Positions 10,506 to 56,220 of a stretch of DNA of 64,000 nucleotides are shown here, one piece after another. The DNA is from Candidatus Rokuibacteriota bacterium (GTDB lineage: Bacteria; Methylomirabilota; Methylomirabilia; Rokubacteriales; CSP1-6): positions 14,843-78,842 of the forward strand of contig QHSA01000133.1 in the NCBI GenBank assembly GCA_003220315.1. Direction: 5' to 3'. Position 1 is the first letter of the stretch. Every line of letters starts with the position of its first letter. A program made the translations under genes and the position numbers. Below the pieces are notes generated by a model that saw only the letters and a list, made by a program, of their open reading frames with translations, had not been told where the DNA came from and made no database searches.

Positions 10506-10740
10506 GGTCGTTCTCCTTGTAGCGGGGTCCGCGAGCCCGGCGCCATCGGTGGGTGGCCTGAGACCAGGCGCGCCCCGGCTCCGGTCCCCCTGCCGCCGCT
10601 CATTCCAGTCCACGCCGCGAGCCCGGCGCCATCGGTGGGTGGCCTGAGACCAGGCGCGCCCCGGCTCCGGTCCCCCTGCCGCCGCTCATTCCAGTCCACG
10701 CCGCGAGCCCGGCGCCATCGGTGGGTGGCCTGCCCACCGT
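10502..10740 (-). repeat. R1-family tandem repeat (86-bp unit x ~2.35) forming chained mini-ORFs between livM and the SBP gene
   Basis: Units 10531-10616 and 10617-10702, plus a partial unit 10703-10732 that lies inside the livM 3' coding end. The livM TGA (10686-10688) overlaps ATG 10689 of a 28-codon mini-ORF (MSGGRGTGAGARLVSGHPPMAPGSRRGLE). Its TGA overlaps ATG 10603 of a 33-codon mini-ORF whose TGA (10502-10504) overlaps the SBP ATG 10505. Confidence 0.8.
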
Positions 10741-11651
10741 GTGCGGAGCCGCCGCACGGCACTCGCGATGCCGCCCGGCATGAACAGCATCGAGGCGATC
10801 AGGATCGCGCCAAAGATCAATGGGCGGTAGTTCTGGAAGCCCGCGAGGGAGTCGTTCAGGACCGTGAGCACCGCCGCGCCGGCCACCGAGCCAGGGACCG
10901 ATCCGAGGCCGCCGAGGATGATCATCGCCACGAAGTCCACCGACAGGAACACGTCGAAGGCGTCGGGCGAGAGGAAGCCGACGACGAAGGCGAAGAGCCC
11001 GCCGGCGACGCCCGTGTAGAGCGCCGAGATCGCGAACGCGAGCGTCTTGTACCGCGCCACGTGGATCCCGCTCGCCTGCGCCGCGACCTCGCTCTCGCGG
11101 AGCGCGAGGAGCGCGCGCCCGGTCCGCGTCCGCGCGAGGTTTCCGGCGGCCCACACCATCACCGCGCCCACCGCGAGGACCAGATAGTAGCGCGCCGTGT
11201 CGGTCGCGAGCACCCACGGCCCGAGGCGCGCGGCTGGGACCCGGAGCCCGTCGTTGCCGCGCGTGAGCCCGTCGAGGTTCAGGATCGCCTCGACGACGAC
11301 GAACCCGAAGGCGAGCGTCGCCATCGCGAGATAGAGGCCCTCGAGCCTGAGGCACGGCACCCCGAGCAGGAGTCCGACCGCCGCGGTGACGAGCGCCGCC
11401 GCGAGGAGCGCCACGACGACCGGGACGCCGGGCGAGCGCGTGGCCACGATCGCGGCGGTGTACGCGCCCACTGCGAGGAACCCCGCGTGGCCGAACGAGA
11501 GCTGGTTCGTGTACCCGGAGAGGAGGTTGAGCCCGATCGCCACGATCGCGTTGACGACGATGAGGCTCGCCAGGAAGACGAAGTAGCGCGGCGCCGCCCA
11601 CGGCCAGAGGAGCAGTCCCGCCGCGCCGATCGCCAGCGCGAGGAGCCGCAT
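10686..11651 (-). CDS. livM: Branched-chain amino acid ABC transporter permease LivM
   Basis: Start ATG 11651 (MRLLALAIGAAGLL) overlaps the TGA of livH (ATGA); LivM-type TM profile; the last ~18 codons are encoded by R1 repeat sequence. Confidence 0.85.
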   Translation of the reverse strand: MRLLALAIGAAGLLLWPWAAPRYFVFLASLIVVNAIVAIGLNLLSGYTNQLSFGHAGFLAVGAYTAAIVATRSPGVPVVVALLAAALVTAAVGLLLGVPCLRLEGLYLAMATLAFGFVVVEAILNLDGLTRGNDGLRVPAARLGPWVLATDTARYYLVLAVGAVMVWAAGNLARTRTGRALLALRESEVAAQASGIHVARYKTLAFAISALYTGVAGGLFAFVVGFLSPDAFDVFLSVDFVAMIILGGLGSVPGSVAGAAVLTVLNDSLAGFQNYRPLIFGAILIASMLFMPGGIASAVRRLRTRWAGHPPMAPGSRRGLE

Positions 11652-13014: not shown

Positions 13015-14120
13015 TGGATCGCCTTCCGCCACATCGGCGAGGCCCACCCGTCCCGGAGGAACGCAAGAATCTCGCGCCGGCTCAGGTCGCCGAGCCCCAG
13101 GTGCTCGAGCGCGCGGCCGCGGCCCGAGAGCTCGCGCCCGAGCAGCGCGCCGTACACGAGAAGGAGCCCCGTGATCGCGGGCGTCACCGCGCCCGCCGCC
13201 CGCGCGGCCGACTCGAGGAGCGCCAACCCGAGAACCGCGTCCTCGGTGACGTAGCGGTGCTCGAACGTGACGATCTCGCTCCAGAGGCCGCTCGCCACGA
13301 GTTTCGTCTTCGCCCCGGCGCCGTAGAGCCCCTCGGCCGCCCGCGTCTCGTCGTAGTACGTCGCGAGCTCGTAGTGGGGCGCCGCGTAGCCCCAGCCCCG
13401 GCGAGTCGCGACCCGCTCGGCGTCCACGGCGTCGATGAGCCGGCGCACGCTCGGCGTCGTGCCAGCCGCGTGGACGTCGAAGCTGCCACCGTCGATCGCG
13501 CCGGTATTCAGGAGAACGAGCGGGGGGTGGATCACGGGCCCGGCGTTGGTGAGCGCGACATCGAGGGAGTCCGCGCACGGGCGGACGGCCGGGAAGAGCT
13601 CGGCGAGCCGCGGCAAGACGCGCGGGCCCCGCGACGCGGGAAACACGCCGATCGGCAGGTTGGCGGCGCGCAGGGGCGCCTTGACGACCGCGGGCGCCGT
13701 CTTCCGCGTGAGATAGGGCAGCGTCCCGGTCTCGGCGAGGGCGAGCGGTAAGGGGCCGCCGGCGCGCGCAATCCCCCGCGCCATCGCGTAGCTACCGAGC
13801 GTTCCCGGTGTGAGCAGGATGATCTGTCGGTCGTTGAGACACGGCGCCAGGCGCTTGGCGAGCTCCTCGTGGCTCGTCGCGGGTAGCGGGACGATCAGGA
13901 CCTCCGCGCCCTCGACCGCCTCGCCGAGGTCGGTCGTGGCGCGCTCGAGCTGCGCCGTCCCGTGCCGCCCCTCGGCGTCGAGCGTGATCGTCGCGCGCTC
14001 CACGAGCGGGCCGAGCGCGTCCGCCGAGCGGCTCCAGAGCCTGACGCGGTGGCCGGCCAGCGCGAGATCGGCCGCCGTCGCGAAGCCACCATTGCCCGCG
14101 CCCAGGACTGCTAGCTTCAC
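13011..14120 (-). CDS. NAD/NADP-dependent octopine/nopaline (opine) dehydrogenase family oxidoreductase
   Basis: GTG 14120 gives MKLAVLGAGNGGFATAADLALAGHRV, a classic Rossmann N-terminus of the opine dehydrogenase family. The GTG is overlapped by the TGA of the R2 mini-ORF. Confidence 0.7.
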   Translation of the reverse strand: MKLAVLGAGNGGFATAADLALAGHRVRLWSRSADALGPLVERATITLDAEGRHGTAQLERATTDLGEAVEGAEVLIVPLPATSHEELAKRLAPCLNDRQIILLTPGTLGSYAMARGIARAGGPLPLALAETGTLPYLTRKTAPAVVKAPLRAANLPIGVFPASRGPRVLPRLAELFPAVRPCADSLDVALTNAGPVIHPPLVLLNTGAIDGGSFDVHAAGTTPSVRRLIDAVDAERVATRRGWGYAAPHYELATYYDETRAAEGLYGAGAKTKLVASGLWSEIVTFEHRYVTEDAVLGLALLESAARAAGAVTPAITGLLLVYGALLGRELSGRGRALEHLGLGDLSRREILAFLRDGWASPMWRKAIQ

Positions 14121-14228
14121 AGACTCGCCTCGCCTGTGGCTGCGGCTCGCACTGCCACGACGTTCATAAGCTCGCCTCGCACGGCGGGGCCCCAGCCCCA
14201 CGACGTGCTGCGGCTCGCACTGCCATCA
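14117..14228 (-). repeat. R2-family element forming two chained mini-ORFs (20 and 16 codons)
   Basis: The CoA-transferase TGA (14226-14228) overlaps ATG 14226 (TGATG). Mini-ORF1 MAVRAAARRGAGAPPCEASL ends with TGA 14164-14166 overlapping ATG 14167 of mini-ORF2 MNVVAVRAAATGEASL. Its TGA 14117-14119 overlaps the GTG 14120 of the next gene. Confidence 0.7.
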
Positions 14229-20378: not shown

Positions 20379-20652
20379 TGTAGCGAAGTCCGCGAGGCCG
20401 GCGCCATCGGTGGGTGGCCTGAGACCAGGCGCGACCCGGCTCCGGTCCCCATGTCGTGTCTCATTCCAACAGGGTCCGCGAGGCCGGCGCCAGCGGTGGG
20501 TGGCCGTCGGACTGACCGCCCTTCGAGCGCGGGCTTCGCCCGCGCAACCGATCCTGGGGGAGGCTCGGAGGGGGCCGTCGAGGCCCCCTTCGATGAGGTG
20601 GGTGGCCTGAGACCAGGCGCGACCCGGCTCCGGTCGTCCCGGCGCTATTCAT
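20375..20652 (-). repeat. R1-family element (two units, the distal one interrupted by a nested R3 element) forming 63- and 29-codon chained mini-ORFs
   Basis: ATG 20652 lies 2 codons before the metallophosphoesterase TAG (ATGAATAG). Mini-ORF1 reads through R1-partial, R3 and R1 to TGA 20461-20463, which overlaps ATG 20464 of mini-ORF2 (MRHDMGTGAGSRLVSGHPPMAPASRTSLQ). Its TGA 20375-20377 overlaps GTG 20378 of the B12 subunit. Confidence 0.75.
20496..20607. mobile_element. R3 MITE-like element (92 bp) with 10-bp direct target duplication GTGGGTGGCC, nested in R1
   Basis: Insert 20506-20597 flanked by GTGGGTGGCC at 20496-20505 and 20598-20607. Two internal hairpins (GCGCGGGC-TTC-GCCCGCGC; GGGGGCC-GTCGA-GGCCCCC). 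A near-identical copy (3 differences) sits at the same position of a diverged R1 at 27445-27556. Confidence 0.7.
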
Positions 20653-22645: not shown

Positions 22646-23604
22646 TGGTACGCAGCGTCCTCTCGCACCCGCCTGAGCTGCCGGAGCAGCGCACGGACCT
22701 TGGCGGTCTCGAACGTCTCGCGCCGGTCGCCGGCGTAGTCGAAGAACCCGCGCCCCGTCTTCGGGCCGAGCTCTCGCCTCGCGATCTTCTCCTCGACCAG
22801 GCGCGCCGGCTTGAAGCGGTCGTCACCGAGCGCGTCGGCGAGGAAGCGGCTCGCACGGTGGAGGATGTCCACGCCGCCCCAGTCGATGAACTCGAAGATC
22901 CCGACCTGCGCGTAACGGAAGCCCATCCCCGCCCTGAACGCCCGGTCCACGTCCTCGGGCGACGCGACGCCCTCCTCGACGAGGCGGACCGCCTCGTTCA
23001 TGAGCAACGCCTGTAGCCGCGGCCCGATGAACCCCGGCGAGTCGGCGCACCGCACGGGGACCTTCCCGAGCGCCTCGAGGACCTCGATGGCGCGGTCGAC
23101 GACGGCGGCCGTGGTCGCCTGGCCGGCGACGACCTCCACGAGCGGGACGATGTGGGCGGGGTTGAGCCAGTGCGCGACGAGGAAGCGCTCCGGACGCTCT
23201 ACCGCGTCGGCGAGGTGCCTGGGCGCGATCGTCGAGCTCGTCGAGGCGATGATCGCCCCGGCGCCGACGCGGGTCGAGAGGCGCCCCAGCACCTCGCGCT
23301 TGAGGTCGAGCAGCTCCGGCAGCGCCTCCTGCACGAAAGCGCACGCGTCGAGGCCGTCGAGCCCCGTGCGGTCCTCGATCCGGTCGAGCGCCGACGCGAC
23401 GTCGCCGCCCGCGATCACACCCTCCTCGGTCATGAGCCGGAGGTCGCGGGTGATCTCGCGCCGCGCGTCGGCGAAGACGGCGCGCCGCTCCTCGGGCGTG
23501 CGGGCCTTGACGTCGACGAGGAGGACACGGCGCCCGCCCAAGGCGAAGGCGAGCGCGATCTGGCGCCCGATCCTCCCGGGGCCGAGAACCGCGACTGTAT
23601 TCAT
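22642..23604 (-). CDS. 3-hydroxyacyl-CoA dehydrogenase (NAD-binding, HBD/FadB-type)
   Basis: MNTVAVLGPGRIGRQIALAFALGG Rossmann N-terminus; C-terminal 3HCDH dimerisation domain; ATG 23604 is the last start of the R2 tandem array. Confidence 0.9.
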   Translation of the reverse strand: MNTVAVLGPGRIGRQIALAFALGGRRVLLVDVKARTPEERRAVFADARREITRDLRLMTEEGVIAGGDVASALDRIEDRTGLDGLDACAFVQEALPELLDLKREVLGRLSTRVGAGAIIASTSSTIAPRHLADAVERPERFLVAHWLNPAHIVPLVEVVAGQATTAAVVDRAIEVLEALGKVPVRCADSPGFIGPRLQALLMNEAVRLVEEGVASPEDVDRAFRAGMGFRYAQVGIFEFIDWGGVDILHRASRFLADALGDDRFKPARLVEEKIARRELGPKTGRGFFDYAGDRRETFETAKVRALLRQLRRVREDAAYQ

Positions 23605-23868
23605 AGACTCGCCTCGCCGGCGGCTGCGGCTCGTACGACCACGTTCATAGACTCGCCTCGCCGGCGGCTGCGGCTCGTACGACCACGCTCATAGACTCGC
23701 CTCGCCGACGGCTGCGGCTCGTACGACCACGTTCATAGACTCGCCTCGCCGACGGCTGCGGCTCGTACGACCACGTTCATAGACTCGCCTCGCCGGCGGC
23801 TGCGGCTCGTACGACCACGTTCATAGACTCGCCTCGCCGACGGCTGCGGCTCGTACGACCACGTTCAC
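23602..23868 (-). repeat. R2-family 44-bp tandem array (6 ATG units plus 1 GTG unit), each unit a 15-codon mini-ORF
   Basis: Unit CATAGACTCGCCTCGCCG(G/A)CGGCTGCGGCTCGTACGACCACG(T/C)T at 44-bp period, with start codons at 23604, 23648, 23692, 23736, 23780, 23824 (ATG) and 23868 (GTG). On the minus strand each unit reads (M/V)NVVVRAAA(A/V)GEASL-TGA, with the TGA overlapping the next ATG (ATGA). The thiolase TGA (23865-23867) overlaps the first GTG; the last TGA overlaps the dehydrogenase ATG. Confidence 0.85.
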
Positions 23869-25034
23869 GCCGGTTCGCGCCCGTAAATCATCACGACGTG
23901 CTCGCCCATCCCGCTGTTGTTGTGCGTGAGCCCGATCGCCGCGCCGGGCACCTGGCGGGCGCCGGCCTCGTCGCGGAGCTGGACGAAGACCTCCGCCGCC
24001 TGGGCGACGCCGGTGGCGCCGAGCGGGTGACCGCATCCGATCAGCCCGCCGCGCGGGTTCACGACCACGTCGCCGCCGTAGTCGCCGCGCCCCGCGGCGA
24101 CGAACGCGCCCGCCTCGCCCTTGCCGCAGAAGCCGAGCTCCTCGCACGCAATGAGCTCCGCGATCGCGAAGCAGTCGTGTACCTCGGCGAGGTCGACCTC
24201 GCGCGGCGCGATGCCGGCCATCCGGTACGCGGCCTGCGCCGCACGCCTGAGCGCGGGCCACTGGGCGTAGTCCTCGTGGAGCGAGGTGAGCTGGAAGCCG
24301 TCCAGCGCCTGGCCCGTCCCTCGGATCCAGACCGGCTTGTCGGTCAGCCCGCGCGCCCGCTCCTCGCTCGCGAGGATCACCGCCGCGGCGCCGTCGGTGA
24401 TCGGCGAGCACATGAACAGGCGCAAGGGCGTCGCGATCATCCGCGAGCCGAGCACCTGGTCGAGCGTGGCGCCCTTGTTGAAGTGGGCGTTCGGGTTCTT
24501 GGCGGCATGGGTATGGTTTTTCACGCCGACCATCGCGAGCTGCTCCTCGGTCGTCCCGTACGCGGCCATGTGGCGCTGGGCCGCGAGCGCGAAACAGGGC
24601 GGCGCCGTGAGCCCGAAGGCCGCCTCCCACTCGCGGTCCACCCCGGTGCCCATGTTGAGGATCGCCTCCTCGCCCGTCGGCGCGTTGAGCTTCTCGACGC
24701 CGAGCACCATGACGAGGTCGGCGAGCCCCGCGGCGATGAAGGCGTACGCGTAGCGGATCGCGACGGTGCCCGAGGCGCACATGTGCTCGGTCCGCGCGCT
24801 GAGCGCGCTCGGCTTGATTCCGAGCGCCTCGGCGGCGAGCGAGGAAATATGGGACTGGAAGGCCGTGCGCTCCGGCATCACGGAGCCGACGACGAGACCC
24901 TCGACGTCCTTCGGCTTCACCGCAGGGATCGAGTCGAAGCACGCCTTGCCCGCCTCCCAGATGAGGTCGCGGTAGCTCGCCCGGCGCACGCCGAACTTCG
25001 AGACCCCCGCGCCGACCAGCGCGACTCGTCTCAT
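23865..25034 (-). CDS. Thiolase-like protein (SCP2-type thiolase / lipid-transfer protein family)
   Basis: 389 aa; MRRVALVGAGVSKFG N-terminus; active-site Cys region (EHMCASGT); C-terminal GCGHPLGATG. Confidence 0.9.
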   Translation of the reverse strand: MRRVALVGAGVSKFGVRRASYRDLIWEAGKACFDSIPAVKPKDVEGLVVGSVMPERTAFQSHISSLAAEALGIKPSALSARTEHMCASGTVAIRYAYAFIAAGLADLVMVLGVEKLNAPTGEEAILNMGTGVDREWEAAFGLTAPPCFALAAQRHMAAYGTTEEQLAMVGVKNHTHAAKNPNAHFNKGATLDQVLGSRMIATPLRLFMCSPITDGAAAVILASEERARGLTDKPVWIRGTGQALDGFQLTSLHEDYAQWPALRRAAQAAYRMAGIAPREVDLAEVHDCFAIAELIACEELGFCGKGEAGAFVAAGRGDYGGDVVVNPRGGLIGCGHPLGATGVAQAAEVFVQLRDEAGARQVPGAAIGLTHNNSGMGEHVVMIYGREPA

Positions 25035-26184: not shown

Positions 26185-27344
26185 CACGCGAACGCCTGAC
26201 CACGGTCCCAGTCGAGGTCGCGGTCGATCACGACGCGCAGGATCTCCGAGGTCCCGCCACCGGGCAAGAGGAAGCGCGCGTCACGGAAGTAGCGCTGGAT
26301 CGGGTACTCCATCGCGAGTCCGTACGAGGCGAAGATGCGCGCCGCCTCGTCCGTGACGCGCACCGCCATCTCCGACGCGAAGAGCTTCACCATCGCCGCC
26401 TCACGGGTGATCGCGCGTCCGGCGTCGAGCCGGGCCGCGGCCTGGTAGGTCATGAGCGTCGCCGCGTGGAGCCGGGTGAGCATGTCGGCGAGCTTGAAGC
26501 CGATCGCCTGGTGCTCGACGATCGGCTTCCCGAACGCGACCCGCTCCCGGGCGTAGGCGAGCGCGGCCGTGTACGCGGCGCGCGCGATCCCGACGGAGAT
26601 CGCCGCGGTCATCACCCGGATCTCCGAGAGGACGGACCCGATCTTCTCGACACCACCCGTTTCACCACCGAGGAGATACTCGGGAGGAACTTCCACGTCG
26701 TCGAGCCGGATCTCCCCCGTCACGGAACCACGCACCGCCATCTTGTCGATCGACTTCCCGAGCGCGATCCCGCGCATCGCCGAGCGGTCCAGGAGGAAGA
26801 GCGCGATGTTCTTCATGCCGCGCTCGGCAGAGGTCTTCGCCGCGACCGTCAGGACGTCGGCCACCGGCGCGTTGGTCACCCAGGTCTTGCCCCCGCGGAG
26901 CACCCAGCGGTCGCCGCGTCGCTCGGCGCGCGTGGTGATGTTGGCGACGTCGGAGCCGGCGCCGGGCTCGGTGAGCGCGAAGGTCGCGACCAGGTCGCCC
27001 CGGAGCGCGGGCACGAGGTACTTCCGGCGGAGCTCTTCGGTGCCGTACTTGTAGATGAAGTAGGTCCCCATCAGCGACTGCATGGCCACCGTCGCGGCCA
27101 CCGAGAGCGAGCCCCGGGCGAGCTCCTCGGCGAAGAGACAATAGGTGACCATGTCCGCGTCGGCGCCGCCGTACGCCGCCGGGTAGCGGAGACCGAGATA
27201 GCCGAGCTCGCCGAGGCGCTTGAACAGCGTCCACGGGAACTCCGCGCGCTCGTCGATCGCCTCTGCGGCCGGCACCACCTCGGCGTCGACGAGCCGCGCG
27301 ACCGCCTTGCGAAATTCTTCTTGCTCTGGCGTGAAGGCGATCAT
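26184..27344 (-). CDS. Acyl-CoA dehydrogenase
   Basis: ATG 27344 (MIAFTPEQEEF) overlapped by the TGA of the R1 mini-ORF; ACAD motifs throughout. Confidence 0.9.
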   Translation of the reverse strand: MIAFTPEQEEFRKAVARLVDAEVVPAAEAIDERAEFPWTLFKRLGELGYLGLRYPAAYGGADADMVTYCLFAEELARGSLSVAATVAMQSLMGTYFIYKYGTEELRRKYLVPALRGDLVATFALTEPGAGSDVANITTRAERRGDRWVLRGGKTWVTNAPVADVLTVAAKTSAERGMKNIALFLLDRSAMRGIALGKSIDKMAVRGSVTGEIRLDDVEVPPEYLLGGETGGVEKIGSVLSEIRVMTAAISVGIARAAYTAALAYARERVAFGKPIVEHQAIGFKLADMLTRLHAATLMTYQAAARLDAGRAITREAAMVKLFASEMAVRVTDEAARIFASYGLAMEYPIQRYFRDARFLLPGGGTSEILRVVIDRDLDWDRGQAFA

Positions 27345-27625
27345 TGTAACGGGGGCCGCGGGGCCGCCACACTCCGTGGGTGGCCTGAGACAAGGCGCGA
27401 CCCGGTTCCGTTCCGTAACGGGGGCCGCGGGGCCGCCACACTCCGTGGGTGGCCGTCGGACCGACCGCCCTTCGAGCGCGGGCTTCGCCCGCGCCACCGA
27501 TCCTGGGGGAGGCTCGGAGGGGGCCGTCGAGGCCCCCTTCGATGAGGTGGGGGGCCTGAGACGAGGTGCGACCCGGGCCCGTTCGGCACGCCGCCGCGTT
27601 TCATTCCACCGGGCGCGGCACTCAT
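27341..27625 (-). repeat. R1-family element (two units, the distal one carrying a nested R3) forming a 94-codon mini-ORF
   Basis: ATG 27625 overlaps the hyuB TGA (ATGA); the ORF reads through R1, R3 and R1 (…HLVSGPPPHRRGPRRPPPSLPQDRWRGRSPRSKGG…RLVSGHP…) to TGA 27341-27343, which overlaps the ACAD ATG 27344. Confidence 0.75.
27445..27556. mobile_element. R3 MITE-like element (92 bp) with 10-bp target duplication (GTGGGTGGCC / GTGGGGGGCC), nested in R1
   Basis: Insert 27455-27546; differs from the 20506-20597 copy at 3 positions, whereas the flanking R1 sequences differ extensively. Confidence 0.7.
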
Positions 27626-29427
27626 GACGTCTTCCGCTCCGCTCTCATCGCGCCGCGGAGCTCGCGCGTGGCGTGCTCGTCCACACGAAGGTCGACCCCC
27701 GTCCCCGCGATCACGACGCCGTAGTCCGCGCGCGCCGCCGCGATCGAGACGTAATCGTCCAGGACGTCCTCGAGCACGCGCCGGGGGTCGCGCTCGAGCG
27801 GGTCACCGTAGCCCCCGGCGCCGGGCTGCTGGAACGAGATGACGTCACCGAACGCGAACTCGCGAGAGGCCTTCCCGTGGACGAGCTGTTCGTCCGGGCC
27901 GGGATTGATCACCGTTCGGCCGAGCGTTCCCGGCCGGCCACCGAACAGGCCGTATGGCGCGAACGTCTGCCGGTCGGCGAGATTCGTGAGCTTGCCGTCG
28001 TCGGCGAGGAAGCGCATGTCGCGGCGGACGCCGCAGCCGCCCCGGAACTTCCCCGCGCCGGCGGAGTCACGGAGCAGCTCGAAGCGCTCGACGATGATCG
28101 GCAGGTTCGCCTCCTGCGCCTCGACGGGGATGTTCGAGGCGTTGAACGCCCACGCCATCGCCTCGCACCCGTCCCGCGTCGCGCGCGCGCCCGTGCCCGA
28201 GAGCACCAGCTCGTACGCGACGAAGCGGCGCCGACGCGCGCGGTCCGAGCCGCCGAAGGTCGGATTCGCCATGTGCGACGCGGCCGCCGCCACTCGGTCG
28301 GGCACCGCCCGCGCGAGCGCGCCGATCACCGACTCGAACGTGCGGTAGCAGATGATCGCGCGCGGCCCCCCGCCCGCCGGCGGCCGCGGGTTGAGGAACG
28401 ACCCCTCGGGCGCCGTCACGGTGATGGGGCGCAGCGCGCCGTCGTTCATCGGGCCGAACGGGTCGGTCAGGCACTTGACCGCGGCATACGAGTAGGAGCG
28501 CGTGTAGTTGATGTAGGAGTTCATGCCCGACGCGGTCTGCGGGCTCGAGCCCCCATAGTCGATCACCATGCCGTCGCCCGCGACCGTCACCGCGACGGCC
28601 ACGCGGAGCGGCGCGGTCCCCGGCCCCGAGTCGTCCATGAAGTCCTCGAACGTGTAGACGCCGTCCGGGACGGCCCGGATCGCGGCGCGCATGTTCGCCT
28701 CGGTCCGCTCGATGATCTCGTCCATCGCGCGGACGAGCAGGTCGCGGCCGTAGCGCGCGCCGAGCTCTTGGAGTCTCAGCTCCCCGACGCGCAACGCGCT
28801 CCGCTGGGCGCGCAGGTCGCCGAGGACCTTCTCGGGCGTGCGCGTGTTCGCGGCGATGATCCCGACGATCCCAGCGTCCTCCTCGTACGCCCTCCACACC
28901 TTGGTCGGCGGGATACGGAGCCCTTCCTGGAAGTAGTCGAAGATGCCCTCGACGCCCTGGCTGCCGGGGCGCTGGCCGCCGACGTCGGTGTGGTGGAGGA
29001 TGTTCACCGCGAAACCGACCAGCTGACCCTCGTGGAACGCGGGCTGCGTGACGAAGAAGTCCGGCAGGTGCCCCGAGCCGAGCAGCGGATCGTTCATGAG
29101 AATGGCATCGCCCGGACGCAGCGACTCGACGGGGTGCGCGGCGAGCGCGTTCTTGACGGCGACGGACATGGCCCCCATGTGCCCGGGACTGTACGGCCCC
29201 TGAGCGACCATGCGCCCCTCGGGGTCGAAGACCGCCACGGAGAAGTCCTGGCCCTCACGCGCCTGCTCGGAGTAGGCGGTCTTATGGACCGTCGTCCCGA
29301 TCTCGACCGCGATCGACTGGAGCGCGCCCCAGATGACGCCGAGGGTGATCGGGTCCGTTGTCGCGGAGGCGGCGAGGCCGGCGCACTCCGTAGGTGGCGT
29401 GCTGTGGGTGCGGTCTGGCTCCGTCAT
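27622..29427 (-). CDS. hyuB: Hydantoinase B / 5-oxoprolinase subunit (HyuB family)
   Basis: 601 aa from ATG 29427 (ATGA overlap with hyuA); DPITLGVIWGALQSI... HyuB N-terminal motif. The first ~20 codons (MTEPDRTHSTPPTECAGLAAS) are encoded by a partial R1 unit. Confidence 0.85.
   Translation of the reverse strand: MTEPDRTHSTPPTECAGLAASATTDPITLGVIWGALQSIAVEIGTTVHKTAYSEQAREGQDFSVAVFDPEGRMVAQGPYSPGHMGAMSVAVKNALAAHPVESLRPGDAILMNDPLLGSGHLPDFFVTQPAFHEGQLVGFAVNILHHTDVGGQRPGSQGVEGIFDYFQEGLRIPPTKVWRAYEEDAGIVGIIAANTRTPEKVLGDLRAQRSALRVGELRLQELGARYGRDLLVRAMDEIIERTEANMRAAIRAVPDGVYTFEDFMDDSGPGTAPLRVAVAVTVAGDGMVIDYGGSSPQTASGMNSYINYTRSYSYAAVKCLTDPFGPMNDGALRPITVTAPEGSFLNPRPPAGGGPRAIICYRTFESVIGALARAVPDRVAAAASHMANPTFGGSDRARRRRFVAYELVLSGTGARATRDGCEAMAWAFNASNIPVEAQEANLPIIVERFELLRDSAGAGKFRGGCGVRRDMRFLADDGKLTNLADRQTFAPYGLFGGRPGTLGRTVINPGPDEQLVHGKASREFAFGDVISFQQPGAGGYGDPLERDPRRVLEDVLDDYVSIAAARADYGVVIAGTGVDLRVDEHATRELRGAMRAERKTS
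29381..29427 (-). repeat. Partial R1 unit fused to the 5' end of hyuB
   Basis: GCCGGCGCACTCCGTAGGTGGC... encodes the PPTECAGLAA peptide shared with other R1 frames; ends with ...CATTCCA at the hyuA stop. Confidence 0.6.
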
Positions 29428-31487
29428 TCCAACTCCACCAGGAGACTCGCGTACTCGTCCACAGCCGCCGAGGCGCCGGGCGGAAGGACGGTCGTGGACT
29501 CGCGCTCCTCCACGATCGCCGGCCCCGTGAGGCGCGCCCCTGCCGCGAGCGCGTAGCGGTCGTAGACCGGCGTGTCCACGTAGCCGCGCGCCTCGGGAAA
29601 GTAGGCGCGACGGCTCCCCTTCACCGCGCGGCCACGGTCCTCGGTCTGCGCCTTCGCGAGCGCGATGCGGGGCGAGCCGCCGACCGCCGAGAGCTTCCAC
29701 GTGACGACCTCCACGGGCTCGCGCGGGTTCGCATAGCCGTAGCGGGCGGCGTAGACCTCGTCGAACGTCGCGCGCACCCGGGCGAGCGCGGCGGCGTCGA
29801 GCTCGCCCGACGGCACGGGAACGGTCAGCTCGTACCCCTGGCCCACGTAGCGCGCGTCGGCCGAGCGCGCCACGTGGATCTCACCGGCGACGGCGGACTC
29901 GCGGACGACCTCCGTCGCCTGCCGCGCCATCTCCGCGTACATCCGACCGAGCTGCGCGAGATCCACGGCGTCGAGCCGGCGGACGTAAGTGCGCGCCACG
30001 TCGAACCGGAGCTCCGCGGCCAGCAGGCCGATCGCGGCCGTGACCCCGGCGGCCGCGGGGAGAATCACGCGCGGGATGCCGAGCGCCTGGGCGAGTCGGC
30101 AGCCGTGCACGGGGCCCGAGCCGCCGAAGGCGACGAACGTGAGGTCGCGCGGGTCGCGGCCGCGCTCGATCGAGACCACGCGGGTCGCCAGCTCCATGTT
30201 GGTGGTGACGATCGCGTGGATCCCCCACGCCGCGTCCTCGAGCGACAGGCCGAGCGGCGCCGCGACCTTCGTCTCGATCGCCCGCGTCGCCGCCGCCGGC
30301 TCGAGCTTGACCGAGCCGCCCGCGAAGTAGTCGGGGTTGATATAGCCGAGCACCACGTTCGCGTCGGTGACCGTGGGCTCGACACCACCGCGCCCGTAGC
30401 AGACGGGCCCCGGCACCGACGAGGCGCTCTCCGGGCCCACGGCGATCACGCCGAGCCGCGCGCGGGCGATCGAGCCGCCGCCCGCACCGATCTCGACGAG
30501 GTCGATCGCCTGAATGTTCATCGGCAGGCCGCTGCCCGGGGCGTTGTTGACGCGGTGGAGCTCGAACGCCGTCGTCGTGGAGGGCCGCCCGCGCTCGACG
30601 AGTGCGAGCTTGGCGGTCGTGCCCCCCATGTCGAACGCGATCAGGTCGCGGTGGCCGGTGAGCTCGCCGTACGCCGCCGCCATCAGGGCGCCCGCGGCGG
30701 GACCCGACTCGATCATCCGCACGGGGTAGCGCTGCATCGCCTCCGCCGTCGCGACGCCGCCGGAGGACTGCATGACGAAGAGCCGGCCCCGGTAGCCGCG
30801 CTCGGCCAGGGCGGCGGCGAGCCCGCGCAGGTACTCGCGCACGGCCGTCATCACGTAAGCGTTGACCACGGTCGTCGAGGTCCGCTCGTATTCGCGGAAG
30901 GTCGGCGACACCTCGTGCGACATCGTCACCGTCACGTGCGGAGCCTCTTCTCCGACGATCTCCGCCAGGCGCCGCTCGTGGAGGGGGTTCAGGTACGCGT
31001 GCAGGAGGCAGATCGCGAGGGTCGTGACCTCGCGCGCGACGAGCTCGCGGACGGCCCGACGGGCGTCGGCCTCGTCGAGCGGGCTCCGCACCGAGCCGTC
31101 CGCCAGGACGCGCTCGGTCACCTCGCCGATCAACCGGCGAGGGATCAGCGGCGCGGGCTTCTCGATCTGGAGGTCGTAGACCTGGTAGCGCTTCTCGCGC
31201 CCGATCAGGAGCACGTCGCGGAAGCCCCGCGTGGTGAGGAGCCCGACGCCTCGCGCCTTGCGCTCGATGACGACATTGGAGCCGAGTGTCGTCCCGTGGA
31301 CCGCCTGGGCCACGTCGCGCCACGTGACACCGCTCCGGGCGACGAGCTCGTCGAGCCCCGCGAGGCAGGCCTCGGAGGGGTCCGGGTAGGTCGTCAGCCG
31401 CTTCGCGATGAGGAGCTCCCCCGACGGCGACTGCAGCACCAAGTCGGTGAACGTCCCCCCGACGTCGAACCCGATCCGGTAGGGCAT
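29424..31487 (-). CDS. hyuA: Hydantoinase A / 5-oxoprolinase subunit (HyuA family)
   Basis: 687 aa; MPYRIGFDVGGTFTD N-terminus; ATG 31487 overlaps the TAA of the R1 mini-ORF (TAATG). Confidence 0.9.
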   Translation of the reverse strand: MPYRIGFDVGGTFTDLVLQSPSGELLIAKRLTTYPDPSEACLAGLDELVARSGVTWRDVAQAVHGTTLGSNVVIERKARGVGLLTTRGFRDVLLIGREKRYQVYDLQIEKPAPLIPRRLIGEVTERVLADGSVRSPLDEADARRAVRELVAREVTTLAICLLHAYLNPLHERRLAEIVGEEAPHVTVTMSHEVSPTFREYERTSTTVVNAYVMTAVREYLRGLAAALAERGYRGRLFVMQSSGGVATAEAMQRYPVRMIESGPAAGALMAAAYGELTGHRDLIAFDMGGTTAKLALVERGRPSTTTAFELHRVNNAPGSGLPMNIQAIDLVEIGAGGGSIARARLGVIAVGPESASSVPGPVCYGRGGVEPTVTDANVVLGYINPDYFAGGSVKLEPAAATRAIETKVAAPLGLSLEDAAWGIHAIVTTNMELATRVVSIERGRDPRDLTFVAFGGSGPVHGCRLAQALGIPRVILPAAAGVTAAIGLLAAELRFDVARTYVRRLDAVDLAQLGRMYAEMARQATEVVRESAVAGEIHVARSADARYVGQGYELTVPVPSGELDAAALARVRATFDEVYAARYGYANPREPVEVVTWKLSAVGGSPRIALAKAQTEDRGRAVKGSRRAYFPEARGYVDTPVYDRYALAAGARLTGPAIVEERESTTVLPPGASAAVDEYASLLVELE

Positions 31488-31567
31488 TATTGGTGGCCTG
31501 AGACGAGGTGCGCCCCGGCTCCGTTCCGCCCGCCGCTTCCCATTCCAGCGAGCCGCAAGGCCGGCAT
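31487..31567 (-). repeat. Single R1 unit forming a 26-codon mini-ORF between the GntR gene and hyuA
   Basis: ATG 31567 lies 1 nt after the GntR TAG (31569-31571); MPALRLAGMGSGGRNGAGAHLVSGHQ-TAA, with the TAA overlapping the hyuA ATG. Confidence 0.65.
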
Positions 31568-31568
31568 G

Positions 31569-32294
31569 CTAGCTCCGGCGTTCGGCTCGGGAGAGGACGA
31601 GACGATAGGGGTAGCGCCGGGGCGTCTGGTAGGTCATCGCGTACTCGACCGGCTCACCACTCGCCGCAAAGTACGTGCGCTCGAAGAGGAGCAGTGGCGT
31701 GCGCGGCCGCACCTGGAGCAGCTCGGCGATCTGCCGCGGCGCGAGGGCCGCGTCGACCACCTGCTCCATGAGCTTGATCGGCACGCCGAGCACGCGCTCG
31801 ATCGCGCCGATGAGCGAGGTCTTCGAGAGGTCCTCGTCGGAGAGCGCCGTGCCGATCGTGAGCGGCACGTACGCGGTCACGTGCTGGAAGGGTCCGTTGT
31901 CCGCGTGGCGGACGCCGCTGATCTGGTAGACCGACGAGCGCGGCGGCAGACGCAGCGCGTGCGCGATGTTTGCCGGGACCGGGACGATCTCGCGCGCCAC
32001 CAGCTTGAACCACGACTCGTCGCCGAGCGCCATCATGTCGCCGACCGAGCCGATCACGCGGAGCTTCGGGTCGGCTCCCGCCGACGGCGTCGAGAAGGTC
32101 CCGCGCCCGGCGTGACGGTAGAGGAGCCCCTCCTCCACGAGGACGTCGAGCGCCTGCCGGATGGTCGGCCGGCTGACCTTGAAGCGCTTGCAGAGCGCGT
32201 GCTCGGAGGGGATGCGCTCGCCCTCCCCGCGCAGATCCTGGCGGATCGCGTCGGCGATCTGGAGGTACCGGGGAATCCCTGGACGGTAGTTCAC
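31569..32294 (-). CDS. GntR-family transcriptional regulator (HutC/UTRA subfamily)
   Basis: N-terminal wHTH (RIPSEHALCKRFKVSRPTIRQALDVLVEEGLL) followed by a UTRA effector domain. Confidence 0.9.
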   Translation of the reverse strand: MNYRPGIPRYLQIADAIRQDLRGEGERIPSEHALCKRFKVSRPTIRQALDVLVEEGLLYRHAGRGTFSTPSAGADPKLRVIGSVGDMMALGDESWFKLVAREIVPVPANIAHALRLPPRSSVYQISGVRHADNGPFQHVTAYVPLTIGTALSDEDLSKTSLIGAIERVLGVPIKLMEQVVDAALAPRQIAELLQVRPRTPLLLFERTYFAASGEPVEYAMTYQTPRRYPYRLVLSRAERRS

Positions 32295-32317
32295 GCGCCG
32301 AACCTCCCGCTGTCAGG

Positions 32318-32329
32318 ATGTCTAGACAT
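32318..32329. promoter_or_regulatory. Perfect 12-bp palindrome ATGTCTAGACAT (candidate GntR/HutC operator)
   Basis: Located 24 bp upstream of the GntR start codon; matches the GT-N-TA-N-AC logic of HutC-subfamily operators. Confidence 0.5.
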
Positions 32330-32382
32330 CTAGCACCCCGCCTCTACGTCGTCAACGACCGAGACGGATGCCACCGTGCGGA

Positions 32383-33012
32383 TCACCCACACGCGAGCAT
32401 CGCGCGCACCTCGTCGTCCGGCACGGGCGAGAAGTCGAGGTAGTACTGCCCGACGGCCTGGAACTCCGGGTCGACGACGAGGCTCACGAAGCGATCGGCG
32501 GCGCGCTCGAATTCTCCCGCGGCCTGCGCGGAGGCGCAGGGCACCGCCACGGTAACGTCGCGCGCCCCGTGTCGGCGCGCGTACGCGAGGGCGACGCGCA
32601 TCGTGAGGCCAGTGGCGAGGCCGTCGTCCACCAGCACCACGCCGGGGCCCGGGAGGTGGGCGCCGAGGGACCGCGCGCCGTACGCCGCCATCCGGCGCTG
32701 GATCTCTCCGCGCACCCGGGCCTTCGCCTGCTCCACCTCCGCCGGCGAGAGCCCGAGCATCGCGACCGACTCGGCCTTGACGTACGCCTCGCCGTCCTCG
32801 TCGAGCGCGCCGAAGGCGAACTCGGGCGCGACCGCCGCGGTCAGCTTGCCCGCGTAAACGAGCGCGAGCGGCGCGCGGAACCGCTCGACAAGGGGCAGGG
32901 CGACCGTCACGCCGCCCCGCGGGATCGCGCCGACGACGAAGGGCGGCGCCGGCGTCGGGACCAGCGCGTCGGCGAGCGCTCGCCCGGCGTCGGCCCGGTC
33001 CCGGAAGGTCAT
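32383..33012 (-). CDS. Phosphoribosyltransferase-domain protein
   Basis: 209 aa; PRTase type-I motif (VVLVDDGLATGLTM). Confidence 0.75.
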   Translation of the reverse strand: MTFRDRADAGRALADALVPTPAPPFVVGAIPRGGVTVALPLVERFRAPLALVYAGKLTAAVAPEFAFGALDEDGEAYVKAESVAMLGLSPAEVEQAKARVRGEIQRRMAAYGARSLGAHLPGPGVVLVDDGLATGLTMRVALAYARRHGARDVTVAVPCASAQAAGEFERAADRFVSLVVDPEFQAVGQYYLDFSPVPDDEVRAMLACG

Positions 33013-35162: not shown

Positions 35163-35290
35163 CGATCCCCCGCCCCTAGACGATCATCGGGCGTCGCTCG
35201 GTCGTCCCACCCGACGCGGAGCCCGTGCACCTCCGGCAGGCCACCTGCCGTGGAGGTGGGCACCCGGCCCCCGCGACAAGGAGACGCGCC

Positions 35291-36418
35291 ATGGCGGAGC
35301 TCGCGGCGACGAAGCGTCTGGTCACGACCCTCGCGATCCTCGTCCTCGTCCTCGCGGCCGGCTTCTATGCGGTCGCCCAGCAGATGGACGAGTCGAAGCG
35401 CGACCGCACCGTCCCCGTGCTCGGCGGTAAGTACCACGTGCTGCCGGCGACGCTCGAGACGACGCAGTGGGGCTGGCTCGACCCCAAGGAGCCGCCCAAG
35501 CTCGTCGTCAACTCCGGCGACACGGTCGCGGTCGAGACGATGATGCACGCGCACAACAAGATCCAGCCCGGGACGACGATGGAGGAGATCGTCGCCCTCC
35601 GCAAGGCGAACCCGGGGGGCGGGCCCCACTCCCTGACCGGGCCGATCTACGTGAACGGCGCCGAGCCCGGCGACGTGATGGAGATCCGGATCCTCAAGAT
35701 CACTCCCAAGGCGTTCGGCGTGAACTTCAACCTCCCCGGCAGGGAGTTCCCGACGATCGGCGCGCTCGCCTCAGAGATGCCCGACGGCTTCGTCAGGTAC
35801 TTCTACCTCGACTGGGACAAGCGTCAGGCGGAGTTCAAGCCCGGCATCGTCGTCGACCTCCAGCCGTTCCCGGGGACGCTGGCCGTCGGCATCGACCCCA
35901 AGGACCCCTCGCCGCGCAAGGGCGGCGCGACCGATCCGATGGCGCCGGTGTCGACGCTCCGGCCCTGGAAGAACGGCTCGAACATGGACATCAACGAGCT
36001 GCAGGAGGGCACGACGATCTACATCCCGATCTTCCTCAAGGGCGGCCTCGTCTGGACGGGCGATTCCCACTGCCGCCAGGGCAATGGCGAGGTCAACCTC
36101 ACCGCGCTCGAGTGCGCCTACCGCGAGATCGTGATGCAGCTCATCGTGCGCAAGGACCTGAAGCTCGACTGGCCGCGCGTGGAGACGAAGACGCACTGGA
36201 TCATGCTGGGCTTCGACGAGGACCTCAACCGGGCGATGGTGAGCGCCGTCCGCGAGACCGTCGACTTCCTCGCGAGCCAGAAGATGGCGCCGCTGACCCG
36301 CTACGAGGCTTACTCGCTCGTCTCGATGGTGGGCGACTGCCGCGTGACGCAGGTGGTGGACGTGCGCAAGGGTGTCCACTGCATGATCCCGAAGTCGATC
36401 TTCGTCAAGCCGTCGTAG
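35291..36418 (+). CDS. Acetamidase/formamidase (FmdA/AmdA family), membrane-anchored
   Basis: N-terminal TM helix followed by the FmdA_AmdA fold (HAHNKIQPG, DxCRQGNGEV). Confidence 0.85.
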   Translation: MAELAATKRLVTTLAILVLVLAAGFYAVAQQMDESKRDRTVPVLGGKYHVLPATLETTQWGWLDPKEPPKLVVNSGDTVAVETMMHAHNKIQPGTTMEEIVALRKANPGGGPHSLTGPIYVNGAEPGDVMEIRILKITPKAFGVNFNLPGREFPTIGALASEMPDGFVRYFYLDWDKRQAEFKPGIVVDLQPFPGTLAVGIDPKDPSPRKGGATDPMAPVSTLRPWKNGSNMDINELQEGTTIYIPIFLKGGLVWTGDSHCRQGNGEVNLTALECAYREIVMQLIVRKDLKLDWPRVETKTHWIMLGFDEDLNRAMVSAVRETVDFLASQKMAPLTRYEAYSLVSMVGDCRVTQVVDVRKGVHCMIPKSIFVKPS

Positions 36419-38597: not shown

Positions 38598-38690
38598 TGC
38601 GTCGGAATCACCGCTGTTCGAGCGCCGGCTCCGCCGGCGCAACCGATCCGGGGGGAGGCATCGGAAGGGGGGCGAAGCCCCCCTCCGAGT
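38598..38690. repeat. R3-like hairpin element at convergent gene ends (probable bidirectional terminator)
   Basis: GTCGGAATCACCGCTGTTCGAGCGCCGGCTCCGCCGGCGCAACCGATCCGGGGGGAGGCATCGGAAGGGGGGCGAAGCCCCCCTCCGAG; same architecture as R3, with compensatory stem changes (GCGCCGGC/GCCGGCGC versus GCGCGGGC/GCCCGCGC). Confidence 0.6.
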
Positions 38691-56090: not shown

Positions 56091-56220
56091 GTCGGAGAAA
56101 GGGCTGTCGACCGGGGTTCGAGCGCCGGCTTTGCCGGCGCACCGATTCCTCGGGGGTTCGCTCCCTCTCGGGAGCGCTCCCCCGGCCTCGGAGGGGGCCG
56201 TCGCGCCCTTAGGGCGCGCC
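56091..56220. repeat. R3-like hairpin element (extended variant)
   Basis: GTCGGAGAAAGGGCTGTCGACCGGGGTTCGAGCGCCGGCTTTGCCGGCGCACCGATTCC...CTCGGAGGGGGCCGTCGCGCCCTTAGGGCGCGCC; shares the TTCGAGCGCCGGC-loop-GCCGGCGC-ACCGAT core and GGAGGGGGCC hairpin with other R3 copies. Lies in frame with the downstream gene, giving a spurious N-terminal extension. Confidence 0.55.

Follow-up and report, generated by a model that had tools for sequence, protein, structure and literature searches.

An operon-junction repeat of Rokubacteria that probably works like a mycobacterial MIRU and is predicted to form the N-terminus of HyuB

What becomes of a repeated sequence that lies exactly where one gene of an operon ends and the next begins? 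The question is raised by a 64-kb stretch of DNA from Candidatus Rokuibacteriota bacterium (contig QHSA01000133.1, hereafter the window), whose minus strand carries all of the genes between ~3 kb and 34 kb, among them, in this order, those for a GntR/UTRA regulator, hyuA, hyuB and an acyl-CoA dehydrogenase (ACAD), the first three confirmed by Pfam. An initial annotation made from the sequence had noted single units of a repeat, R1, at both ends of hyuA. We consider it probable that R1 is a repeat that colonizes operon junctions and works like the mycobacterial interspersed repetitive unit (MIRU), supplying a 26-codon open reading frame (ORF) that bridges the GntR gene and hyuA as well as a tail of 23 residues at the N-terminus of HyuB. 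The features on which this depends are as follows.

31569 to 32294, minus strand: gene for a GntR/UTRA-family regulator (Pfam GntR and UTRA)
31487 to 31567, minus strand: bridging ORF of 26 codons, MPALRLAGMGSGGRNGAGAHLVSGHQ, by direct reading from ATG 31567 to TAA 31489-31487
31490 to 31549, minus strand: long-form R1 unit, head and core only (nhmmer with an independent profile, 46.5 bits, E=1.6e-13)
29424 to 31487, minus strand: hyuA, hydantoinase/oxoprolinase A family (Pfam Hydant_A_N, Hydantoinase_A and Hydant_A_C)
29424 to 29427, minus strand: ATGA stop/start overlap of hyuA and hyuB, spacing -4 (hyuA TGA 29426-29424, hyuB ATG 29427-29425)
29358 to 29431, minus strand: short-form R1 unit, HyuB residues 1-23 in translation (MTEPDRTHSTPPTECAGLAASAT; nhmmer with the independent profile, 28.3 bits, E=7.5e-8)
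29356 to 29358, minus strand: ACG, HyuB residue 24 and site of the former hyuB start, directly after R1 ...GCGACA; the boundary codon varies among lineages
27622 to 29427, minus strand: hyuB (Hydantoinase_B, Pfam PF02538)

Repeat finding brought out units of ~86 nt at 10.5, 20.4-20.6, 27.3-27.6 and 31.5 kb of the window, and a 32-nt pattern of the R1 core matches seven times where no match is expected, one of the seven being 31492-31523. Units measure 53, 66, 69, 77 or 86 nt and exist in a long and a 5'-short form. A profile of long forms only scored 31489-31548 at E=2e-15 and the hyuB stretch at E=0.005, reached the hyuB copy at E=0.005-0.1 only and missed most short forms. The rebuilt profile, used with nhmmer, is based on 26 long-form units, all from other genomes, together with 12 short-form units taken from other lineages; it leaves out the window together with its near-identical relatives L020-L022 (L numbers denote compared loci, L001 being GCA_003221495.1, and P numbers orthologue proteins). 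With this profile the single units at both ends of hyuA are recovered at the E-values listed above, and a copy on the plus strand, at 35219-35281, comes to light as well. In a search of 185,579 species-representative genomes the exact core was present at 18 loci in 4 genomes, all metagenome-assembled genomes (MAGs) of Rokubacteria/Methylomirabilota, and R1 is a repeat family that we have found only in Rokubacteria. The comparisons below draw further on HyuB orthologues of 85-99% identity, from Candidatus Rokubacteria/Methylomirabilota MAGs and soil metagenomes, and on a set of 80 metagenome loci with HyuB identities of 90-99%.

The alignment of the DNA from 29431 to 29358 with the R1 family is complete, extending from the ATGA as far as the terminal ...GCGACA. 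It belongs to the 5'-short subfamily, whose members start with ATGA-CGGAGCC, 8 nt later in the family alignment; that the copy might be a decayed long unit was considered and rejected in favor of this assignment. Because the unit is 69 nt in length, a multiple of three, the ATG of the ATGA overlap reads straight through it into hyuB, and a GGAG (29436-29433) is found 5 nt upstream of this ATG. PF02538 matches HyuB over the full length of the profile (residues 25-543 on positions 1-519 of 519, E=7e-166), the domain beginning DPITLGV..., and the canonical in-frame starts comprise only a GTG at 29700, 91 codons inside hyuA, the ATG at 29427 and a GTG at 29238, 39 residues into the conserved domain, which leaves ATG 29427 as the only suitable one. 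The initial annotation had the hyuB ATG overlap the hyuA TGA, which it does (ATGA, 29427-29424), and had ascribed the first ~20 codons of hyuB to R1; the origin in R1 stands, while the length is revised to 23 codons followed by the decayed start ACG. Peptides predicted for the extension are THSTPPTECAGLAASATTDPITLGVIWGALQSIAVEIGTTVHK, an N-terminal (M)TEPDR and a tryptic peptide spanning ...ASATTDPITLGV....

Most HyuB orthologues begin, as had been anticipated, with M, 2-6 amino acids and DPITLGV and have no extension, and one clade carries an extension of 24 residues starting MTEP.... At the level of the DNA most of the hyuA/hyuB junctions among the 80 metagenome loci are empty (...ggcATGAgccgagtcGAC, giving a HyuB of MSRV-DPITL), with ~30 loci empty at both the GntR/hyuA and the hyuA/hyuB junctions. 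In L001 the two genes overlap by GTGA and HyuB reads VSAPDPITL with no repeat, and the ATGA overlap likewise occurs in relatives where the junction is empty. Across lineages the hyuA/hyuB junction holds 0, 1, 1.5 or 2 R1 units, and what follows the last of them forms a series: L023, with two short units (53 + 69 nt), ends ...gttacaGTG-GAC; L091, with 1.5 units, ...ctacaATA-GAC; L024/26/28, with one unit, ...cgacaATC-GAC; and the window and L020-22, also with one unit, ...cgacaACG-GAC. A duplicated remnant of the head is all that L069 retains (MTEPGRVTEPGRAL-DPITL), P0019, available as protein only, has kept the M at the R1/hyuB boundary, and the paralogous hyuA-hyuB pair of L019 has a full R1 ending gctacaATGGACCCGATCACG. 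From this series it follows that the 3' end of R1 fell exactly on the hyuB start codon and that the codon has since decayed independently in several lineages. That the start codon is redundant and has been lost several times fits with translation entering from upstream.

In order to judge what constrains the extension, its substitutions can be set beside those of the gene that follows. Over the 72-nt extension five lineages show ~25% differences, distributed 45:62:54 over the three codon positions, and over the adjacent 462 nt of hyuB ~10% differences, distributed 50:34:351. Within the extension these lineages have neither an indel nor a stop codon, and the first 11 nt, ATGACGGAGCC, are invariant. 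The pattern indicates that the extension diverges at approximately the synonymous rate with its amino acids unconstrained, so that its evolution is neutral and frame-preserving, and it fits a tail that would be translated and yet indifferent to its own sequence. A conserved non-repeat N-terminus in the orthologues, which the initial annotation had named as the observation that would speak against absorption of R1 by HyuB, is absent: the matching N-termini are themselves R1 DNA (E=1e-8 to 1e-12 for the orthologous units in L023, L024 and L091), ~25% divergent and without codon-position bias. The proposal that R1 has been absorbed as an N-terminal extension of HyuB is thus supported, both by the lack of another suitable canonical start and by the loss of the boundary start codon in several lineages.

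At the upstream end of hyuA the GntR gene stops at TAG 31571-31569 (cgccGGAGcTAGcATG), with a GGAG (31576-31573) within its last codons, and a single base (C, 31568) separates this stop from the ATG of the bridging ORF at 31567 (spacing +1), to which the GGAG is 5 nt upstream. The last A of the TAA that closes the ORF is at the same time the first base of the hyuA ATG (31487-31485), which gives TAATG (spacing -1), and the hyuA ATG itself is without a Shine-Dalgarno motif (CTCAGGCCACCAATA directly before ATG). This 26-codon relay had been read correctly in the initial annotation. The R1 unit inside it has lost ~33 nt of its tail with the frame kept and ends ...AATAATG, as is typical of the GntR/hyuA junction (compare the end in the window, ...CCACCAATAATG, with GCGACAATAATG in L040), and the flank 31550-31567 (ATGCCGGCCTTGCGGCTCG) looks like a partial R1 unit that has collapsed.

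In relatives the GntR gene is likewise upstream of hyuA and the junction holds, depending on the lineage, 0, 1, 2 or 3 R1 units, two complete 86-nt units in the case of L003. Empty junctions, in ~30 loci, consist of stop, 2-12 nt and start (in L001, GntR TGA-gggcgg-ATG hyuA), with the GntR-embedded GGAG 5-12 nt before hyuA. Among the filled junctions there are 14 sequence variants, in which 35-223 nt separate the GntR stop and the hyuA start, and every one of the 14 keeps the relay, with an ORF that starts no more than 10 nt from the GntR stop and ends -1, 0 or -4 from the hyuA ATG, by way of TAATG, TGATG, TAAATG, TAGATG or ATGA. Composition-matched shuffles reproduce the relay in 7-15% of trials. 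In L020-L022 the bridging ORF and TAATG are retained despite four amino-acid changes. A different arrangement is seen in L049, L055, L059, L064, L075 and L078, where the GntR TGA is followed by 5 nt and then by the conserved TAT codon of HyuA (TGACCGCC directly before TAT); no canonical start codon lies between the GntR TGA and the HyuA TAT in these six loci, and their hyuA may start at CTG or at a codon overlapping GntR.

R1 occurs a third time in this operon, beyond hyuB.

27341 to 27625, minus strand: hyuB/acyl-CoA dehydrogenase junction, composed of R1 head, nested R2, R1 tail and an R1 unit

This interval is spanned by one ORF of 94 codons with ATGA at both ends, and its ATG-to-ATG distance of 281 nt is 2 mod 3; the spacings in the window are therefore +1/-1 at GntR/hyuA, -4 at hyuA/hyuB and -4/-4 at hyuB/ACAD. 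Empty (CGATGATC) and filled (CGATGA...ACCATGATC) sites here reveal a clean 4-nt direct repeat, ATGA, and each of nine differing ATG-to-ATG lengths between 77 and 461 nt is 2 mod 3. The array at this junction is subject to further change. L021 (7732-7941) differs from the near-identical L022 (7732-8012) by a 71-nt deletion that shortens the distance between the ATGs, 278 nt (2 mod 3), to 207 nt (0 mod 3), placing the ATG that overlaps the hyuB stop in frame with the acyl-CoA dehydrogenase, a potential extension of 69 codons. In L040 (7732-8195), L098 (5246-5565) and L052 (7732-7883) there has been an expansion of 24-nt sub-repeats (GACTGCGGACCGGAGCCGACGGTT and the like) into arrays 5' of the terminal R1 unit, with increments over the single-unit form of 72, 240 and 384 nt, all multiples of 24.

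Beyond this operon the placement of R1 is strikingly regular. Its orientation is that of the downstream gene in 18/18 unbiased genome loci, and when the downstream coding frame is assigned from G+C content at third codon positions, R1 runs the same way in 72 of 73 distinct contexts; in the window the minus-strand copies go with minus-strand genes and the one plus-strand copy (35219-35281) with a plus-strand gene. The genes that follow are unrelated (LivK-like, B12-binding mutase subunit, acyl-CoA dehydrogenase, hydroxyisourate hydrolase-like and others). The 3' end of R1 is TAC[AC]+RTGA at ~15 of 22 distinct junctions, and two junctions end TACA-AGGAGA-N6-ATG, a 3' variant of R1 that has its own Shine-Dalgarno motif. 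The plus-strand copy just mentioned is a short form before a gene with its ATG at 35292 and ends GCGACA-AGGAGA-CGCGCC-ATG; the copy at 10516-10608 has a comparable 3' end, GCTACA-AGGAGA-ACGACC-ATG.

Units chained by ATGA have ATG-to-ATG distances of 86, 77, 53 and 44 nt, that is 2 mod 3, and the three sense frames of R1 are all open apart from the TGA of its ATGA motif, which lets ribosomes travel through the repeat. Frame 1 terminates at the downstream RTGA, translation in frame 2 stops and can resume at ATGA, and frame 3 continues into the downstream gene as a fusion. The notion of a compensation between unit period and loss of the TGA was dropped, as all three sense frames are productive anyway. 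R1 sequence also appears to have entered proteins elsewhere. On the minus strand at 10700-10760 the frame of a permease-like gene located upstream of the 10.5-kb array continues into an R1 tail (...WAGHPPMAPGSRRGLE*), a C-terminal absorption; in L006 (3260-3352) the upstream gene reads through an entire R1 unit as far as GTGA; and in L019 (4821-4891) a copy of the R1 family (E=1e-10) lies within the paralogous hyuA, in a variable linker before the C-terminal domain, and may be an internal in-frame insertion.

A number of other signals were looked for in R1. Its conservation has no codon periodicity (0.53/0.56/0.45) and its peptide no match in Pfam. Single R1 sequences fold no better than shuffles (z -0.7 to +2.7), and RNAalifold, applied to 21 copies, reaches -6.7 kcal/mol, with neither compensatory pairs nor covariation. 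Rfam 15 yields no match at the gathering threshold in the whole window and none at E<=1 in 27200-31700. Neither the unit alignment nor the folds contain the terminal inverted repeat expected of a MITE, a transposable element of the miniature inverted-repeat type, and the minus strand from 27200 to 32400 has no terminator-like or promoter-like site.

These observations suggest how the operon may work. Insertion of R1 at GntR/hyuA would have put ~80 nt between hyuA and the GGAG that the last codons of GntR contain, and this GGAG would now serve the ATG of the 26-codon R1 ORF. Ribosomes terminating at the bridging TAA could then restart on the overlapping hyuA ATG (TAATG, -1), termination-reinitiation at a spacing of -1 having been reviewed (PMC12548453), and on the evidence of the junction sequences this would be the simplest mechanism for hyuA. 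At hyuB the start at the end of the unit would have become redundant and decayed to ACG, with the result that HyuB would now be made with a tail of 23 residues encoded by R1, probably disordered, selection acting on the reading frame of the tail only and not on its sequence. R1 would, in addition, be a mobile element.

Several points weigh against this proposal. That the 26-codon ORF and the extension of HyuB would be translated is a prediction from sequence, and no enzyme that would mobilize R1 was identified. A clean target-site duplication is missing at both GntR/hyuA and hyuA/hyuB, even though empty and filled sites exist for each (RTGCC / ATGYC). Empty sites contain 9 nt (codons 2-4) that are missing from the hyuB unit, and the insertion history at hyuB is therefore only partly reconstructed. 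At hyuB/ACAD shuffles with fixed length and ATGA ends produce a bridging ORF in 20-86% of trials, open frames being common at 72% G+C, so that the shuffle test does not discriminate at this junction, where the regularity of length mod 3 is the sole informative part. Moreover, the junction variants compared partly share ancestry, with an estimated ~5-10 independent types, and both the 14/14 count for the relay and the mod-3 rule accordingly overstate the number of independent events.

Some of these same points invite a neutral account, in which R1 is purely selfish or neutral, the relay ORFs are by-products of high G+C content and of NTGA target duplication, and hyuA initiates independently. 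Bridging in 20-86% of shuffled spacers that keep length and end motifs, conservation without codon periodicity and variants related by descent all speak for it. We regard it as unlikely, for it has to contend with an insertion that left hyuA without a Shine-Dalgarno motif and passed the GGAG on to the bridging ORF, and with 14 of 14 GntR/hyuA variants that stop at -1, 0 or -4 despite length changes that are not multiples of three, as against 7-15% of full shuffles. R1 orientation, furthermore, strictly follows the downstream gene, the hyuB/ACAD spacers are all 2 mod 3, and a 44-nt family of unrelated sequence, described below, shows the same architecture. For HyuB in particular, initiation could be placed at the non-canonical ACG 29358 or at another internal codon, with the R1 stretch an untranslated spacer. 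The ACG does occupy the ancestral start position, gene callers do favor the longest ORF and rare non-AUG initiation does occur in bacteria; however, no Shine-Dalgarno motif precedes the ACG (GCCTCGCCGCCTCCGCGACA directly before it), the codon is ACG, ATC, ATA, GTG or ATG according to lineage, as at a relaxed site, and the frame upstream is open and free of indels at ~25% divergence, with its first 11 nt invariant, a GGAG 5 nt upstream and a -4 overlap. Initiation at ACG or another internal codon is for these reasons quite improbable.

Two further explanations take the coding frames either less or more seriously. Were R1 a structured cis-regulatory RNA or a protein-binding operator, for instance for the adjacent GntR, the frames would be incidental, and the 35-nt core (GGAGCCGGGNCGCNCCTNGTCTCAGGCCACCC) is indeed conserved at the nucleotide level without codon periodicity and holds a small palindrome, GCCTG-N4-CAGGC. 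R1 nonetheless folds no better than shuffles, has no compensatory pairs and no Rfam match at E<=1, and precedes unrelated genes mostly without a GntR gene nearby, which makes a regulatory RNA or operator very improbable. That the R1 ORF encodes a functional micropeptide (MRSDMRNGAGSHLVSGHPP...) we hardly credit at all: a peptide core NGAGxHLVSGHP recurs in many copies, but variability is equal at the three codon positions, there is no Pfam match, and copies are read in different frames or truncated. A MIRU-like repeat at operon junctions hence remains our preferred reading of R1.

R1 has company in the window. A tandem array of 44-nt units at 23556-23907, with a single copy at 14116-14159, has no evident sequence similarity to R1. 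On the minus strand each unit is an ORF of 15 codons chained to the next by ATGA (44+1=45), and the chain connects the GTGA that stops a thiolase-like gene with the ATG that starts a 3-hydroxyacyl-CoA dehydrogenase-like gene (ATGAATACAGTC), which makes this a second family with the architecture 'length = 2 mod 3 + NTGA'. R2 (20505-20593, 27454-27542, 38600-38688 and 56110-56155) is 89 nt long and has two G+C-rich hairpins; it is twice nested in R1 units with GGCCACCCAC(C/G) on both sides and read through by bridging ORFs; since it stands alone just after a stop codon at 38.6 kb, R2 is taken to be an independent REP-like element. An element of ~49 nt (GACTCACGCAGGCTCGCCTCRCGCGTCGGACGCGCTGCGGCTTCGCAC...) is nested in R1 units directly after CAGGCC in L008 (3279-3643), L004, L011 and L013, giving periods of 135 nt that are read through in frame. 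By eye, with no alignment, it resembles the complement of the gene-sense 44-nt unit, a resemblance that conflicts with treating the 44-nt family as unrelated to the R1 system.

It is tempting to see in this a guild of 'translation-transparent' operon parasites in Rokubacteria, made up of R1 (53-86 nt), the 44-nt family and the 24-nt sub-repeats, that have converged on 'length = 2 mod 3 with NTGA at both ends', a suggestion that we make tentatively and with some doubt. If there were such a guild its elements could invade stop/start overlaps and have no polar effect, the number of their copies could adjust how neighboring cistrons are coupled, and a unit whose length slipped to 0 mod 3 would add neutrally evolving N- or C-terminal sequence to a protein; it would amount to an independent invention of the MIRU strategy and to a visible route for the birth of coding sequence. 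MIRUs have so far been treated as a mycobacterial curiosity, mostly as typing markers. Their architecture in an uncultured soil phylum, with insertion at start codons, co-orientation, coupled ORFs at -4/-1 and variable tandem number in common, suggests a general way for selfish DNA to live in operons. For annotation the consequence is that bridging ORFs and N- or C-terminal extensions derived from R1 may be miscalled or may inflate the counts of 'hypothetical proteins'. HyuB appears to be a clean natural example of N-terminal gain, in which an ATG comes into frame by way of a repeat, the old start decays and the segment drifts neutrally, and the main value of the locus lies in the comparative series that leads from repeat to protein sequence.

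How does R1 compare with known systems? The REP/BIME sequences of enterobacteria are short, abundant, mosaic intergenic repeats that form stable hairpins and are usually located 3' of genes, in both orientations. R1 and R2 form composites as these do, whereas R1, which forms no stable fold, is placed 5' of start codons and in a single orientation. In bicistronic designs and leader-ORF coupling a short ORF hands the ribosome to a downstream start (PMC12548453). R1 is similar in that a short ORF with its own Shine-Dalgarno motif ends -1 or -4 from the start of a gene that has none, and different in that the leader comes from a repeat and is tandem-repeated into a chain. Repeats in frame within genes are represented by RPE of Rickettsia (Ogata 2000) and by pneumococcal RUP, BOX and SPRITE (Croucher 2011), reviewed in PMC3184786. 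Like these, R1 joins a protein-coding frame, 5'-terminal extension included, and leaves the gene intact, residues 1-23 of HyuB being R1 inside an intact conserved frame that has no other usable start codon. They are, however, palindromic or MITE-like and inserted in either context, while R1 is non-palindromic, has no stable hairpin (by the z-scores and the RNAalifold energy given above), is locked in orientation and would enter the protein by capturing a coupled start codon upstream.

In the literature searched we found no description of repeats in Rokubacteria or of MIRU-like elements outside mycobacteria, and the likeness of the R1 architecture to that of MIRUs (PMC12548453, PMC3184786) goes beyond what the initial annotation had claimed. 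MIRUs (Supply et al. 1997, as summarized in PMC12548453 and PMC3184786) are repeats of 40-100 bp situated in operons and transcribed polycistronically; they insert at start codons with a spacing of -4, their filled sites have tetranucleotide direct repeats, and their ORFs overlap the neighboring genes. R1 likewise consists of direct repeats of some tens of bp, single or in tandem, with a copy number that varies among lineages at one locus. It sits between co-oriented operon genes in the orientation of those genes, the ends of its ORF either overlap the neighbors' stop and start codons (-4, NTGA) or lie directly next to them, and it is inserted at start codons, with empty and filled sites and a 4-nt direct repeat (ATGA, at hyuB/ACAD). 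It differs in its host, Rokubacteria/Methylomirabilota and not Mycobacterium, and as a repeat of another phylum is not a MIRU in the strict sense; the likeness is one of architecture, kinship of sequence being probably absent. It differs also in that its 5'-short forms fall in frame with the downstream gene and give protein extensions, in that it hosts nested R2, and in that one 3' variant carries its own AGGAGA Shine-Dalgarno motif. In the structural features of MIRUs that were compared here R1 nevertheless agrees with them, as regards the flanking direct repeat cleanly at hyuB/ACAD only, and the MIRU is its closest known kind.

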